Assembly (NCBI GenBank): GCA_965223325.1
Contig: CBDCWI010000001.1
Coordinates: forward strand, 1,824,001 to 1,888,000
Length of the DNA: 64,000 nucleotides
From: Candidatus Multivoradales bacterium
GTDB lineage: Bacteria; Acidobacteriota; Thermoanaerobaculia; Multivoradales; Multivoraceae
Reading direction: 5' to 3'
Within the stretch, counting starts at the first letter, position 1, and each line of letters opens with the position of its first letter. Made by a program: the position numbers and the translations under genes. This document shows, in pieces, positions 1 through 4,767 of this stretch. The notes under the pieces are model-generated. The model was not told the DNA's origin. It did not search any database and saw nothing but the letters and a program-made list of their open reading frames with translations.

Positions 1-586
1 AGGGGCGGGCGGGAACGGTCGTTTCCGCGCCGGCAGCGCCAGGAGAAGCGCTCGCCGAACGACCCTCACTGGCTATCAACCGAAAGCGCCCCGCGAGGCT
101 CACGTCGCCTATGCCCTCGATGGTTTCGTTGCGATGATGAATGCTGGTGAACTCGGAACGTATGGCGCCGGTTTCATCTTCGAAGGCCGCTCGAGTTTCG
201 ACGCTGCGCAGTGGTACCTGAACCTCCAGGGCCGCCCGCTCGGTCAGGGCGTAGCTGCCGCGCACGACAACGGTGTCGAGCGACAGATCAACGTGATGGA
301 CACGCGGCTGGTCTACGAGCGGCACGCCCGGCTCGTACTGGTCAGGATCGACCCCGTGCGACGTCTCGACGCGAGTCGACAGCCACGTCAAATCGAGCCG
401 GAAAGCTCCGGGTTCGAGATCGACCGAGAGATGCGTCCCTCCAGCCTGGAGGTTGGGGTTCGTTCAGGCGGTTCAACCACTCGACGCCCAGGCAGCTGGA
501 ATCAGCTGGACGAGTGCCAGGGCGACGAGGATCGGCAGAGCCGCTTTCCGCCGCGAGGGCAACGAGGGCGAGGGGGTTCTTCTCAA
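1..586 (-). CDS. Putative exported selenoprotein with UxxU motif; probable outer-membrane beta-barrel/transporter (3' end runs off the window)
   Basis: Manual translation. TTG start at 586 overlaps the upstream stop (TTGA). Signal peptide MRRTPSPSLPSRRKAALPILVALALVQLIPAAWA, then SSG-TGA(475-473)-T-A-TGA(466-464)-TNPNLQAGG. The frame stays open to base 1, with amphipathic beta-strand patterns (FRLDLTWLST, VVVRGSYAL, LEVQVPL), HH motifs and IHHRNETIEGIGDVSLAGRFRL. A SECIS-like hairpin lies at 438-452. Confidence 0.75.
438..452 (-). promoter_or_regulatory. Putative bacterial SECIS element for the UxxU gene
   Basis: mRNA CCUCCA-GGC-UGGAGG: a 6-bp perfect stem with a G-containing apical loop, starting +12 nt after the second UGA (+21 after the first). 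Confidence 0.65.
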
Positions 587-1281
587 CGCCTCGCCTTCTC
601 GATCAGGCGGTCGAGCTTCTCGAAGTCGAGACCGGAAACGAACCCGACGCGGCGCGGGCCCTTCTTCTCGTGCAGATGCCAGACCTCGACATAGGGCAAA
701 CCCGAGACTTTGGTGAGGTAGCGCTTGGCGACCTCGGAGTCCCAGTCGACGACGTTGAGCTTGCGAACGGCCAGGCTGGGGTCTTTCCCGACTCGTTCGA
801 TCAGTCCGCGGTCGAGTTCGCGGCAAGGGCCACACCACTCGGCCCAGAAATCGAAGATGACGACCTTGCCAGCGGTAACCTCGGGCTCGATATCGGCGTC
901 CTTGCCGTCGCGCGACAGCCAGGCCACGTCGGCGTCTTTTGGAAAGTCTGCGGGCGGCAGGTAGAAGCCCTTGCCCTTCCCGACCACGACCTCTACACCG
1001 GGGTCGGCTGCGGCGACCGCTTCCGCGATGAGTGAATCAACCGACAGCAGGCTGTCGTCGAAATCGACCAACACTTCAGCCGCCTTCAAATCGAAAGACG
1101 CGGCGTTGACTCCCGAAAGAGCTTCGAGTTGCGCGACGACCGCCGCGCCGCAGCTCTGTCAGTCGAGCGCCCGCAAAGAGAGCGTTACCTCACGGGCCGC
1201 CAGGGGCCAAGAGACCGCGAAGAACAGGATGGCTGCGACACCGGCGCGAACTCGCGCAGGGTTCAAGATGGAGACCGACAT
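583..1281 (-). CDS. Putative exported selenoprotein: HMA (heavy-metal-associated, UxxC) domain fused to thioredoxin (WCGPC), 232 aa
   Basis: ORFs 1159..1347 and 583..1089 are in the same frame, separated only by TGA at 1161-1159. Readthrough gives signal peptide MSVSILNPARVRAGVAAILFFAVSWPLAA, then REVTLSLRALD-U-QSC-GAAVVAQLEALSGVNAASFDLKAAEVLVDFD (MerP/CopZ-like GMxCxxC pattern), then thioredoxin GKVVIFDFWAEWCGPC. GAGG RBS precedes ATG 1281. Confidence 0.85.
1131..1148 (-). promoter_or_regulatory. Putative bacterial SECIS element for the HMA-thioredoxin gene
   Basis: mRNA GCGCGGC-GGUC-GUCGCGC: a 7-bp stem at +11..+28 after UGA with a GGUC loop at +18..+21, similar to the E. coli fdhF SECIS loop in sequence and spacing. 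Confidence 0.75.
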
Positions 1282-1662
1282 TCTTGGGACCTCGTATTGG
1301 GACCGCCTCGCGAACTTACCGGCGACGCAGAGCGATTGGAGCGGCAAGACGGACGTTTAGCCTAGCCGATCTACGGCGCGCTCTGAATCGCTGACTGGTG
1401 GTTCGCATGGCGGCGCGGCGGGGCGTGTTCCCGGCGAAGGCGCCGGAGACAGTGCCTGCTAGGCTGTCCCAACGTTCGAGAGTTTCAGTCGGTCGGTCCA
1501 CGGTTGATCGTGGTTTCCGATGCACGCCTCTCAGTCGACAGCTCGCGAGAAGCAACGCGGAGCACGCCTGAGAGCGCTGGCTCCATGTTCTCCTTTGCTC
1601 TTTGACCGTCTGGTTCTTCTACGCCCTCTCCGGAGGCCACCATTCGATCAGGAGTCTGAACC

Positions 1663-4600
1663 ATGAGAACACCAACCGCCCCCTGCCGCTCCACCTTCGC
1701 TTCCCTCTCTGCTCGCGCAGTGGTTCTCGCGGTTCTCGGGCTCAGCCTCCTCGTCGTCGGCCAGCCGGCATTCGCCCAGACCGCCGGCTCGATCGAGGGT
1801 GCGGTCACCAGCGTCGACGGGGCCGCCATCCTAGGGGCAACGGTGACCCTGTCAGGTGAGGCGCTCCAGGGGCCACCGCTGGTGGCGACCACGGGTGCCG
1901 ACGGGCGCTACCGCCTTTCGCCGGTACCGGCCGGGACCTATGAACTGGCCGTCGAGTCGAGTGACGGGAGCTTCACGCGACCCGAGGTGATCGTGGGTGT
2001 CAACGCTTCGCTCACCATCGACTGGACCGTCGGCCAGCAAGACACCCTCACGGTCATCGGCGAGGCTCCCCTGATCGAGGTCACCCGCTCCGACTTGGCC
2101 TCACGGGTGCCCCAGCAGGCGATCGAAAACCTGCCGCTCAACGGCCGCAACGTCGAAGACCTCGTCAACCTGGTCCCGGGCGTCAAGCCCAACCCAGCCG
2201 GCGTTGCCGACCAGCAGTTCTCGATCTTCGGTGAACGGGCAGCCGCCACCTCATTCATCGTCGATGGCGCCGATAACAACGACCCGCTCGACGGCGGCGC
2301 CTTCCAGCGCTACTCACAGGACTCGATCCAGGAGTTCGAGGTCATCACCACAGGCTACGAGGCCGAGTTCGGCAAGGCCCAGGGGGGCGTGGTCAACGTG
2401 CTCACACGCTCCGGTGGCAACGACCTCAAGGGCTCGCTCTTCTACTTCATGCGCAATGACTCCTGGGACTCTTCGAACGTCTCCGGACAAGAAGTCCCCA
2501 AGCTCGAGCGCGACCAGTATGGAGCCTCGCTCGGAGGCCGTCTGGTCGAGGACCGCGCCTACTACTTCGTTTCGGCTGAGCTGCTCGACGAGAAGCGCGG
2601 CCGCAACCTCGACTTTTCCCAGGTGCCGTCCTGGGTGCAGAACGGCCTCGCCACGCCTGGTTCTCTCAGCGAGAACTTCGGCCTCGGCCCAGAGGACGAA
2701 GGTCTGGTGGCGCTCGGCAAGATCGACCTCGTGCCCAACGACTCACACCGCCTCTCCTTCAGCTATAACCGCACCGATGACGAAGCCGCGGGCGAGATCC
2801 CCAGCGGCATCGCCGGCTCGATCGTCATGCCCAGCGGCGCTCGCACCCAGGACCGCGCGTCCGACAGCTTCACTCTGCGCGACACCTGGATCGCTGGACC
2901 GTCGATGTTTCTCGAATCGAACGCCAAGTACCTCGACGGCACGACCGGCAGCAACCTCGACCGTGCGGACCGCGGCGAGACCGTGCTGCTTCTCTTGCGC
3001 TCTGGATTCATTCAGACTGGCGCGCCGGTCGGCGGTCGCTCGGAGCGCAACATCGAGCGCCTGCAGATCGCACAGGACTTCACCTGGATCCCGCAGGGCG
3101 CAACCAACCACACGTTCAAGTTCGGCTGGGACTACACCGACACCACGCTCGACGGTTTCAACGAGGTCTGGAACGATGTCGAGTATTCGGCGGCGTTCCT
3201 CAACCCGAACGCGGCCGGCGTGATGCAGGACCTGTTCTCGCGTTTCGGCTTCGAGCAGTCGGCCGCACGCTTCTTCAACCTCTCGGCCAACCCCGACGGT
3301 CGCTTAAACCTCGATATCTCGAACGAGGACGTTGGCGTCTTCGCTCAGGACCAGTGGCAGGTGGCCGACAACGTCACCGTCAACCTCGGCCTCCGGTGGG
3401 ATCGTGCCAGCCTCTTCGGCGACGACGAAGACAACTTCGGCCCGCGCGCCGGCATCACCTGGGATATCAGCGGTGACTACCGCACGATCCTCAAGGCCTC
3501 GGCAGGCATCTTCCACGATCGCAACGCCCTCGCCGCAGCGGCCGGGGTCCCCTCAAAGGGTGGCATCTTCACTCGCAACGCCTTCGACGTCGCCCTGCCA
3601 ACACTGGGCTACGACTACTCCGACTCGCTGATCGATCTAGTCATCACCTCGGGGTTCCCGATCGGCGGCGGAGCGCGCTCGCCGGCAGAGAACCCGTCCT
3701 ATCGCGCCTTCGCTGACGCCCTGCGCGCCAACCCGCTGGCGCTCTACGACATCCTCGGCATCGCAGTCAGCGATCCATCGCGTCCGCCAACCGTGACCGC
3801 CGACAACATCCAGGCGCTTTCGGGCATGTCTCCCGACCAGGCGGTCAACCTGCTCGAAACCATGTGGCCGGGCACCGACTGGGCGTTCTTCGATGTGCCG
3901 GGCGGCTCCATTCTCGGTGACCGGGTGCTTTCGTTCCTACCTCGCGGCCCGTTGAGCACCAGTCGCAACGTCCAGGTCTACGACCGTGACGAAACGCCCA
4001 TGACCACGGCCTTCACGATCGGCGTCGAGCACCAGTGGGGCCCTGACATCACGCTGGGTCTCGCCTACGTCCACCGTGAGACCGAGGATCTACTGACGCA
4101 GCGCATCGTCAACCTCTTCGACGCCCAACCGGGCGATCCCAACTTCGGCCAAACGACCGATGGCGGAGCGCGCATCACTCAGGTGGGCTACGACGGCTTC
4201 ATCGACTACGACGGCGTGGTCCTGAGCGTGCGGCGCCCGTTCCGAGATCGCTACGGCTTCTCCTTGTCCTATACCTGGTCGGACGCCGAAGACAACCTTC
4301 TCACCGGCAACGTCGGCTCAGGCTTCAGCAACAACAACCATCCCGAGTTCGACATCGGCGAGTCCAACCTGTCGGCACCGAACGTCGCGGTCGCAAGCAT
4401 CACTTCGCTTCTACCGCTCGACTTCCGGGTCAGCGCCGTCTTGTTCCATCGAGATGGCAACGCCTTCTCACCGCGCGGCATCGTCGACACCGACGGCGAC
4501 GGGCTCGTCGACCAGCGCGACCTTTCCGTTCCACGCAACTCCTTCCGGGTCGATGACTTCACGTCGCTTGACATTCGCCTAGAGAAGCCCTTCCAGCTAC

Positions 4601-4767
4601 CGGACGGCTACGAGATCAACCTGTTGATCGACGTCTTCAACGTCACCAACGAGCGCAACGTGGCAAACGTCAACCCAGTCTCAGGACCAGACTTCGGAAC
4701 TCCCAACGAGTTCTTCCCGGGCCGCGAGATCCAGGCAGGCGTGCGTTTCTACATCGGCGGTCGCTGA
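1663..4767 (+). CDS. TonB-dependent receptor (Oar-like) with N-terminal carboxypeptidase-regulatory-like domain
   Basis: Signal peptide (AFA-Q), GSIEGAVT..GATVTL domain, LPLNGRN plug motif, DSIQEFEVITTGYEAEFG, FAQDQWQV..NLGLRWD, C-terminal PGREIQAGVRFY. AGGAG RBS. Confidence 0.93.
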   Translation: MRTPTAPCRSTFASLSARAVVLAVLGLSLLVVGQPAFAQTAGSIEGAVTSVDGAAILGATVTLSGEALQGPPLVATTGADGRYRLSPVPAGTYELAVESSDGSFTRPEVIVGVNASLTIDWTVGQQDTLTVIGEAPLIEVTRSDLASRVPQQAIENLPLNGRNVEDLVNLVPGVKPNPAGVADQQFSIFGERAAATSFIVDGADNNDPLDGGAFQRYSQDSIQEFEVITTGYEAEFGKAQGGVVNVLTRSGGNDLKGSLFYFMRNDSWDSSNVSGQEVPKLERDQYGASLGGRLVEDRAYYFVSAELLDEKRGRNLDFSQVPSWVQNGLATPGSLSENFGLGPEDEGLVALGKIDLVPNDSHRLSFSYNRTDDEAAGEIPSGIAGSIVMPSGARTQDRASDSFTLRDTWIAGPSMFLESNAKYLDGTTGSNLDRADRGETVLLLLRSGFIQTGAPVGGRSERNIERLQIAQDFTWIPQGATNHTFKFGWDYTDTTLDGFNEVWNDVEYSAAFLNPNAAGVMQDLFSRFGFEQSAARFFNLSANPDGRLNLDISNEDVGVFAQDQWQVADNVTVNLGLRWDRASLFGDDEDNFGPRAGITWDISGDYRTILKASAGIFHDRNALAAAAGVPSKGGIFTRNAFDVALPTLGYDYSDSLIDLVITSGFPIGGGARSPAENPSYRAFADALRANPLALYDILGIAVSDPSRPPTVTADNIQALSGMSPDQAVNLLETMWPGTDWAFFDVPGGSILGDRVLSFLPRGPLSTSRNVQVYDRDETPMTTAFTIGVEHQWGPDITLGLAYVHRETEDLLTQRIVNLFDAQPGDPNFGQTTDGGARITQVGYDGFIDYDGVVLSVRRPFRDRYGFSLSYTWSDAEDNLLTGNVGSGFSNNNHPEFDIGESNLSAPNVAVASITSLLPLDFRVSAVLFHRDGNAFSPRGIVDTDGDGLVDQRDLSVPRNSFRVDDFTSLDIRLEKPFQLPDGYEINLLIDVFNVTNERNVANVNPVSGPDFGTPNEFFPGREIQAGVRFYIGGR

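Follow-up and report, generated by a model that had tools for sequence, protein, structure and literature searches.

An operon for two exported selenoproteins in an acidobacterial genome, with a possible role in soft-metal handling at the cell envelope

Layout of the locus

We analyzed a stretch of 64,000 nucleotides (nt), hereafter the window, from the genome of a Candidatus Multivoradales bacterium of the phylum Acidobacteriota (GCA_965223325.1, contig CBDCWI010000001.1, positions 1,824,001 to 1,888,000; source genome hereafter G000). At its left end lie two minus-strand genes that together carry three in-frame TGA codons. We found that these genes form a translationally coupled two-gene operon encoding two exported selenoproteins. 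Gene 1 encodes a heavy-metal-associated (HMA) domain joined to a thioredoxin, and gene 2 a predicted outer-membrane beta-barrel with a pair of selenocysteines (Sec, U) near its N-terminus. The features are listed below in window coordinates; SECIS stands for selenocysteine insertion sequence.

583 to 1281, minus strand: gene 1; ATG start at 1281-1279, stop TGA at 585-583; 232 amino acids (aa) with TGA read as U
1159 to 1161, minus strand: Sec codon (TGA) of gene 1; residue 41, context LD-U-QSCG, at the first HMA CxxC ligand position
1131 to 1148, minus strand: SECIS-like hairpin of gene 1, GCGCGGC-GGUC-GUCGCGC, beginning 10 nt past the UGA (sequence and script)
1015 to 1182, minus strand: HMA domain, residues 34-89, with the motif U41-Q-S-C; PF00403, 32.6 bits (cut-off 24.8), E 1.1e-07
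634 to 888, minus strand: thioredoxin-fold domain, residues 132-216, with W149-C-G-P-C153; PF00085, 31.4 bits (cut-off 23.5)
583 to 586, minus strand: 4-nt overlap TTGA, joining the TTG start of gene 2 and the TGA stop of gene 1
1 to 586, minus strand: first 195 codons of gene 2; TTG start at 586-584; the gene leaves the window at position 1
464 to 475, minus strand: Sec codons of gene 2, TGA at 475-473 and TGA at 466-464, with two sense codons between them
438 to 452, minus strand: SECIS-like hairpin of gene 2, CCUCCA-GGC-UGGAGG, 11 nt past the second UGA and 20 nt past the first
1282 to 1662, no strand: intergenic region, presumed to hold the promoter, between gene 1 and a divergent TonB-dependent-receptor-like gene (open reading frame map)

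In the genome sequence, gene 2 comprises 371 codons in full (G000:C1:1823474-1824586), 528 nt of which lie left of the window, and its in-frame TGAs are residues 38 and 41 in the context SSG-U-TA-U-TNPNL. Each of the two products has, at its N-terminus, a basic n-region followed by a hydrophobic h-region. Under translation table 11 both genes are fragmented: gene 1 is reduced to 168 aa starting within the HMA domain, and gene 2 to 306 aa (MTWLST...) lacking the signal peptide. The public protein collection contains precisely these truncated forms (P0179 and P0004, respectively). An earlier note on this DNA, made from the sequence alone, had described two coupled genes with a TTGA overlap and signal peptides, both broken up in the list of open reading frames; the sequence bears this out, the table 11 calls being N-truncated. 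A promoter scan of the operon region found no sigma-70-like site, and a terminator scan found no terminator between or after the two genes.

Decoding of the three TGA codons

Judging from sequence, all three TGAs are genuine Sec codons. The evidence consists of the decoding machinery, conservation in which Cys takes the same positions, a position-specific hairpin, co-occurrence with SelA, and agreement among assemblies. G000 carries tRNA-Sec, SelA (369 bits), SelB (64 bits), and SelD (223 bits), with the Sel proteins above curated cut-offs; the check for selA, selB, selC, and selD proposed in the earlier note thus found the complete set.

A search of 60 relatives with the read-through gene 2 product (P0003) recovered gene 2 in two other genomes (61% and 40% identity), both with two in-frame TGAs. 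The wider comparison comprised 83 loci (L008-L090), namely the best 80 of 138 relatives from a scan of one genome per species and three from the genome search. A script located the motif at the gene 2 Sec site in 80 of these, as UxxU in 51, CxxU in 15, and CxxC in 14. TGA is thus present at the motif in 66 of the 80 loci, and UxxC was never seen among them. The motif precedes an HQH motif by a constant 158-187 residues; the loci lacking it were L025, which is cut by a contig end, L054, and L060. Cys-form barrels in the protein collection include P0020, P0025, and P0027. In gene 1, the TGA is retained as TGA in a second genome (G003), and U aligns with Cys in all 12 Cys-form HMA neighbors and with the first Cys of CxxC in 70 database relatives. 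The proposal of three in-frame TGAs at CxxC-like positions is therefore upheld, as Cys or a conserved TGA aligns with each U.

SelA was detected in 10 of 10 U-form genomes and in 1 of 10 CxxC genomes, these 20 having been hand-picked to spread over the clades, with completeness not reported. Over window positions 1-1400, contigs from three samples of one study, which may themselves be the source of the assembly, showed 0 differences and no indels; with that limit, the agreement speaks against an assembly error at the TGAs.

The gene 1 hairpin is identical in G003 and has the same design as the barrel hairpins. Its 7-bp stem with a GGUC loop occurred in none of 12 Cys-form gene 1 relatives, 4 of which had unrelated hairpins of 5-6 bp. 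In U-form barrels, a stem-loop begins 9-11 nt past the second UGA (e.g., CCUCCC-GGUC-GGGAGG and CCUCC-CGGGN-GGAGG), and GGUC is the commonest loop. Perfect stems of at least 5, 6, and 7 bp were present in 61, 56, and 37 of the 66 U-forms, respectively, against background rates of 0.227, 0.104, and 0.040 at codons elsewhere in these genes (n = 16,395). No CxxC form (0 of 14) had a stem of at least 5 bp at the hairpin offset. The stems show wobble covariation, in which the third base of a Leu codon (CUC/CUG/CUU) pairs with that of a Gly codon (GGG/GGC/GGA), and pairing is preserved in other variants as well (CCUCGCC/GGCGGGG, UCUGUC/GGCAGA, and the window's own CCUCCA/UGGAGG).

The earlier statement that each TGA is followed by a SECIS requires correction: there are two hairpins, not three, and both gene 2 UGAs share the one at 452-438. 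Since the first UGA has no hairpin of its own, this single structure must serve two UGAs 9 nt apart, making gene 2 a testable case of two adjacent UGAs read via one SECIS. The abundance of CxxU and the lack of any UxxC are consistent with a SECIS positioned for the second site, Sec at the first being a secondary acquisition.

Several observations weigh against the Sec assignment. Five Kofleriaceae U-forms have a perfect stem of only 4 bp, and the folding energies of single sequences past the UGAs were no better than those of shuffles (z −0.17 and +0.20). Rfam gave no match over the operon at E up to 1; the first gene 2 UGA, lacking its own hairpin, stands 20 nt from the stem; one CxxC genome does contain SelA; the SelA sample (n = 20) was hand-picked; and no RNA runs containing the stretch are listed. 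If the TGAs were instead true stops, sequencing errors, or marks of a pseudogene, it would be natural that standard gene callers start or end genes at them. We consider such an artefact extremely improbable, because the TGAs are kept across phyla and other lineages have Cys in their place, the hairpin covaries and is tied to its position, U-forms co-occur with Sec machinery, and contigs of three samples agree exactly. In addition, truncated products would lack the signal peptide that the barrel and the exported thioredoxin need.

As a separate observation on the machinery, the selD match (G000:C1:1389082-1390062) lies inside a 769-aa open frame, much longer than plain SelD, which may encode a fusion protein.

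The outer-membrane barrel

The AlphaFold model of the gene 2 product, built on an alignment of 24 family members, had 12 strands, with a predicted local distance difference test (pLDDT) score of 80.1 and a predicted template modeling score of 0.78. Its top structural matches were the COG4313 channel Pput2725 (4rl8_A; Z 23.8, root-mean-square deviation 2.9 Å, 252 residues) and FapF (5o65_A; Z 23.3), and Foldseek and an independent all-against-all aligner agreed on these two. The next matches were autotransporter barrels (Z 17-19), and PcoB (7pge_B) stood at rank 19 (Z 13.2). The model thus places the gene 2 product among 12-stranded outer-membrane barrels of the COG4313/FapF fold class, which bears out the barrel proposed from the sequence alone. 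P0003 matched no Pfam family at E up to 10, including PF13557 and CopB/PcoB, and no NCBIfam family was found at E up to 1 in the approximately 320 residues past the motif. The barrel family profile likewise had 0 matches among PDB sequences at E up to 1, and a precomputed PF13557 match was present in only 3 of 26 barrel relatives.

The motif [Sec/Cys]-x-x-[Sec/Cys]-x-N-P-N-L-P comes directly after the barrel signal peptide. Of 80 barrels, 59 have Ala and 12 have Gly at position −1 before the first Sec/Cys; at −3, 44 have Ala and 24 have Gly. A (−3,−1) cleavage site directly precedes the first Sec/Cys in 68 of the 80. As these residues conform to the signal-peptidase rule, the Sec pair is predicted to lie at, or no more than 3 residues from, the mature N-terminus. 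We also considered this N-terminus as that of a lipoprotein (a 'seleno-lipobox') and rejected it, as position −3 is Ala or Gly, not Leu, Val, or Ile.

Further along, the residues H150, H151, R152, E154, D161, E212, H225, and H227 are invariant and fall within HHRNET and TEEDPF..G..GL.HQH.FGSGT; going by strand order in the model, this His cluster probably lies in extracellular loops 2 and 3. In Pput2725, the N-terminal residues (approximately 14) enter the barrel at its periplasmic end, folding into the lumen and occluding it (PMC4493636). By analogy, the Sec pair of gene 2 could sit in the channel mouth; since the model has pLDDT below 50 for residues 1-46, a luminal N-terminal segment is an analogy and not a prediction.

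The barrel resembles COG4313 (Pput2725, 4RL8, PF13557) and FapF (5O65) in its 12 strands and in having an N-terminal segment before strand 1, whereas it lacks sequence-level membership (no PF13557 and no PDB sequence match). It also has three features that the parts of the sources drawn on here do not describe for those proteins: the Sec/Cys N-terminal pair, an obligatory thioredoxin partner, and the invariant His cluster. With PcoB/CopB (7PGE), it shares the character of a small outer-membrane barrel with a link, here putative, to copper; however, the fold match is weaker (Z 13.2, rank 19), a Pfam match is absent, and PcoB/CopB have no thioredoxin partner. PcoB/CopB have a flexible metal-binding N-terminal region, with Met/His and not Sec/Cys ligands. 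Paired Sec residues occur elsewhere too: eukaryotic SelL carries a diselenide. Among prokaryotic selenoproteins, UxxU pairs occur in a Prx-like oxidoreductase, an FmdB-family protein, and NF041115 (Table 1 of PMC13188914). These have in common with gene 2 two Sec at a CxxC-like register but differ in fold and compartment; here, the pair is at the extreme N-terminus of an outer-membrane protein and is decoded via one SECIS placed for the second UGA.

The HMA-thioredoxin protein and the conserved partner

Gene 1 encodes a predicted periplasmic protein with an HMA domain plus a thioredoxin, as the earlier note had it, with both Pfam scores above the gathering cut-offs; TIGR01068 matches the same residues (132-216) with a score below its cut-off. 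Of 75 relatives in the protein collection, 70 are HMA(CxxC)-thioredoxin proteins, 48 of them with CQSCG, and the four closest are truncated inside the HMA domain, as expected of Sec forms. Among the loci, HMA is found on the thioredoxin partner in 14, with Sec in 2 (G000 and G003) and Cys in 12. Judged by these relatives, Sec in HMA is confined to a small clade, and gene 1 is a Sec variant of an unnamed HMA-thioredoxin family, members of which are auto-labelled 'thioredoxin' or 'CopZ' in the sources. The view of Sec-HMA as a feature of the system does not survive these counts (2 of 14 partners; four truncated close relatives against 70 Cys forms).

Gene 1 scores below the cut-offs of MerP (TIGR02052; 31.5 vs 92.55 bits), CopZ (NF033795; 34.9 vs 91 bits), TlpA (25.1 vs 230 bits), DsbE (23.4 vs 123 bits), and ResA (18.5 vs 170 bits), and is a member of neither NF041115 (27.2 bits, cut-off 95) nor NF045683 (17.8 bits, cut-off 375). 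It is nevertheless like the HMA selenoproteins in that Sec replaces a Cys ligand of the HMA CxxC; these comprise NF041115 ('UxxU metal-binding (seleno)protein'), NF045683 (a MerT/CopZ fusion-like selenoprotein), and P-type ATPases with a UxxC HMA (Table 1 of PMC13188914). It differs from them in its UxxC motif (vs UxxU in NF041115), thioredoxin fusion, export, and sub-cut-off scores. The likeness to exported thioredoxins of the TlpA/ResA/DsbE type lies in the exported WCxPC fold, the lipobox of most partners, and a target with a Cys/Sec pair, whereas here the presumed target is an outer-membrane barrel, the partner has its own metal-binding module, and the scores are below cut-off. TlpA acting on ScoI and CoxB is reportedly an example of an exported thioredoxin that reduces CxxC/CxxxC sites of metal-receiving proteins.

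Beside the barrel, 76 of the 83 loci have a thioredoxin domain resembling the one in gene 1, mostly directly upstream, and directly downstream in Kofleriaceae, Polyangiaceae, and others. Fusions of the barrel to a C-terminal thioredoxin, with His-rich linkers, account for 31 of the best 150 family representatives. The thioredoxin is thus the fixed partner of the barrel across phyla, either as an adjacent gene or as a C-terminal fusion. As both ends of a 12-stranded barrel are periplasmic, a fused thioredoxin would sit beside the N-terminal Sec pair. HMA is adjacent in 15 of the 83 loci, on the thioredoxin partner itself in 14 of those; the conserved core consists of thioredoxin and barrel, and HMA is an optional add-on. 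One locus (L028) is an all-Cys copy of the window architecture, including the same 4-nt overlap.

The partner varies among lineages. The partners of Archangium, Myxococcus, and Polyangia have, in place of HMA, a pair of Cys-rich repeats of the form C-EH-x5-6-C-x-x-C-[HN]-P (L038:5315-5950, L053:5285-5950, L064:4874-5950, and L074:4757-5989), and most of these partners carry a lipobox. Pfam contains no family for the repeats, giving only a sub-threshold Cytochrome_C7 match (E 0.0098); they may be an undescribed metal-binding or heme-binding module. We do not call them a heme site because one repeat varies between CxxCH and CxxCN from species to species. In Kofleriaceae (L029:6124-7884, L030, L034, L069, and L076), a single gene encodes the barrel, the thioredoxin, and, as a third fused part, a domain resembling cupredoxin (PF13473, E 1.9e-10). 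In the genome G010 (L010:2840-2930, minus strand), the all-Cys HMA part (CRTC) is out of frame with the thioredoxin part, the break being at a five-A run; the assembly may contain a homopolymer error there, or the frameshift may be real. The locus L024:3439-9461, from a Myxococcales metagenome-assembled genome, contains a MerR-family regulator, a MerT-HMA fusion, an HMA-thioredoxin, a UxxU barrel, and a convergent heavy-metal P1B ATPase, an arrangement like that of a resistance island. Finally, the contig depth of metagenome runs peaked at window positions 800-893 (the WCGPC region); this is not a copy-number signal, since short conserved stretches of the thioredoxins of other organisms map there.

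A possible soft-metal relay and its alternatives

Taken as a whole, our best explanation is a coupled operon of exported selenoproteins that serves in a soft-metal relay, for which we put the chances slightly above even. For the relay itself, in which the barrel and the HMA-thioredoxin would pass a soft metal through the envelope, we regard the balance as even; Cu(I) would be the most likely metal, with Hg, Cd, and Zn also possible. The HMA, His-rich, Cys-rich, and cupredoxin add-ons suggest a soft metal, with copper first. Other metal-linked features of the loci were as follows, where the MerR-family regulators and MerTP had NCBIfam scores below equivalog cut-offs.

Cupredoxin domain fused after the barrel and thioredoxin: 5 loci
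MerR-family regulator adjacent: 5 loci
P1B-type ATPase adjacent: 4 loci
Multicopper oxidase directly upstream: 1 locus (G010, L010)
MerTP-like protein adjacent: 1 locus

Following cleavage at the signal-peptidase site, the first Sec would be residue +1 of the mature barrel. The N-terminal segment, by analogy with Pput2725, would lie in or at the periplasmic mouth of the barrel, beneath the invariant cluster (HHRxE...D...E...HQH), which we assign to extracellular loops 2 and 3. The His cluster would capture a metal, which could then move to the selenolate pair and on to the HMA site of the partner. A DsbD-type pathway would feed the thioredoxin, which would prevent the Sec pair from staying diselenide-locked in the oxidizing periplasm; a DsbD_TM protein is encoded elsewhere in G000. 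The direction may be either uptake or detoxification.

A number of points count against the relay. In the 20 loci whose neighbors were scanned, the flanks differ by lineage and are mostly unrelated to metals, the gene pair being a module complete in itself, and HMA is missing from 68 of the 83 loci. The link of the module to metal is indirect, coming from domains and neighbors, and those neighbors disagree, with the multicopper oxidase and cupredoxin pointing to Cu and the ATPase of L024 being of the Zn/Cd/Pb/Hg type. Given this ATPase and the sub-cut-off regulator and MerTP scores, copper is a first guess for the metal. As to the structure, the His cluster is assigned to its loops by strand order, and model residues 1-46 have the low pLDDT noted above. 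The soft-metal handling proposed in the earlier note accordingly stands in part: it is plausible from the accessory domains and some neighbors, but most flanking genes are unrelated to metals.

A bolder version of the relay, which is possible but doubtful, is that the mature barrel starts with Sec and that its N-terminal Sec-x-x-Sec 'selenium hook', in the channel mouth under the His cluster, passes Cu(I)/Hg(II) across the outer membrane to the HMA chaperone, a dedicated thioredoxin that is predicted to be a lipoprotein in most lineages keeping the hook reduced. If true, this would be the first outer-membrane metal channel with selenium ligands, widespread among Myxococcota and Acidobacteriota of aerobic soils but concealed because gene calls are truncated. 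It would also provide a natural example of a bacterial SECIS that by itself decodes two UGAs 9 nt apart. The barrel family is a candidate for a missing step in the crossing or handling of soft metals at the outer membrane.

The same module can be read as an envelope redox defence, in which the Sec pair is a catalytic redox center acting on peroxides, lipid hydroperoxides, or other oxidants, the thioredoxin partner recycles it as in Prx/GPx-thioredoxin systems, and the metal-related add-ons are secondary. The invariant partner is indeed a thioredoxin whose WCxPC is of the reducing type, and known selenoproteins use CxxU and UxxU as redox motifs (Table 1 of PMC13188914). Metal genes are absent from the surroundings of most loci, and small barrel enzymes of the same general fold exist (LpxR, Z 14.3; OMPLA, Z 11.4). 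A glutathione reductase gene is convergent to the module in 8 Archangium-group loci, but this is synteny of one genus group and not an independent link. As redox defence leaves unexplained both the recurrent HMA, His-rich, Cys-rich, and cupredoxin modules of the partner and the invariant His cluster, we consider it unlikely. The nearest folds, a COG4313 channel and FapF, would also suit a redox-gated channel of COG4313/FadL-like type for hydrophobic or other small molecules, with the N-terminal CxxC/UxxU acting as a disulfide/diselenide plug lock that the thioredoxin opens. The occluded lumen of Pput2725 (PMC4493636) and the precomputed PF13557 match in 3 of 26 relatives are in line with such a channel, whereas P0003 has no PF13557 match even at E 10, no catabolic genes recur beside the module, and neither the family-specific His/Glu/Asp cluster nor the metal-binding add-ons of the partner is explained. 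Such a redox-gated channel for a non-metal cargo seems quite improbable to us.

Uptake of selenium, which had also been raised earlier, or its storage would have the Sec pair bind selenium species for import, and the sole support is the selenium within the protein itself. The module has only Cys in 14 of 80 loci (e.g., L028), and SelA was not found in 9 of 10 CxxC genomes. With an all-Cys module in genomes without detected SelA, the function cannot depend on selenium metabolism, which makes this role very improbable.

Distribution and significance

Against 1.84 billion representatives, the barrel profile matched 1763 at E<=1e-3, 617 at 1e-10, and 330 at 1e-30. Most database entries are N-truncated, and the N-terminal motif is missing from 141 of the best 150 representatives; the part that matters is thus the part missed by gene callers. 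Carriers are soil and freshwater Myxococcota and Acidobacteriota, together with genomes labelled Verrucomicrobiota, Gemmatimonadota, and Eisenbacteria. Within the phylum of G000, a match at E<=1e-10 was found in 21 of 301 sampled genomes and 12 of 186 genera, indicating a patchy distribution. On a FastTree phylogeny of 80 barrels, which was without bootstrap and midpoint-rooted only, the U/C states changed at least 8 times. UxxU forms are scattered across Acidobacteriota and Myxococcota, with single genomes from other phyla, and CxxC falls mostly in one clade of 12. Cultured carriers of CxxU include Archangium violaceum Cb vi76, A. gephyra SDU49, Myxococcus sp. RHSTA-1-4, and Pyxidicoccus caerfyrddinensis CA032A, which put experiments within reach, and the natural CxxC / CxxU / UxxU series allows one to ask what selenium adds at each position.

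Most selenoproteins of bacteria are redox enzymes found in the cytoplasm of anaerobes. The barrel family stands apart in being large, located in the outer membrane, and endowed with two Sec at the predicted mature N-terminus. Neither Pfam nor NCBIfam contains a model for it. A prokaryotic selenoproteome review of May 2026 lists 119 families in its Table 1, including an MtrB/PioB-type barrel, a TonB-dependent receptor, and three UxxU entries (PMC13188914), and neither this barrel nor the HMA-thioredoxin fusion is among the families of that table. We found no literature on the barrel or the pair, although the supplementary tables of selenoproteome papers, which were not covered, may list it. Gene 2 thus belongs to a large and apparently undescribed family of double-Sec outer-membrane proteins; the suspicion that the architecture was new agrees with the absence of the barrel from the profile libraries checked and from the 119-family inventory.

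Neighboring genes

In the Archangium/Myxococcus group, glutathione reductase (8 loci), proline dehydrogenase (10 loci), and PadR (6 loci) recur beside the module; we rejected them as parts of it because their linkage is synteny within that group only. A GNAT acetyltransferase gene begins directly after the gene 2 stop codon, left of the window (L002:12904-13470, minus strand). It too was rejected as a module part, as it is absent from the other-genome loci (L009-L090), the sole match (L008) being the G000 locus itself. On the other side, divergent from the operon, the gene at window positions 1663-4767 (plus strand), for which no link to the selenoprotein pair was found in other genomes, encodes a 1034-aa outer-membrane protein (PF25183, PF13620, and PF00593) that combines a carboxypeptidase-regulatory-like domain with a TonB-dependent-receptor-like barrel.

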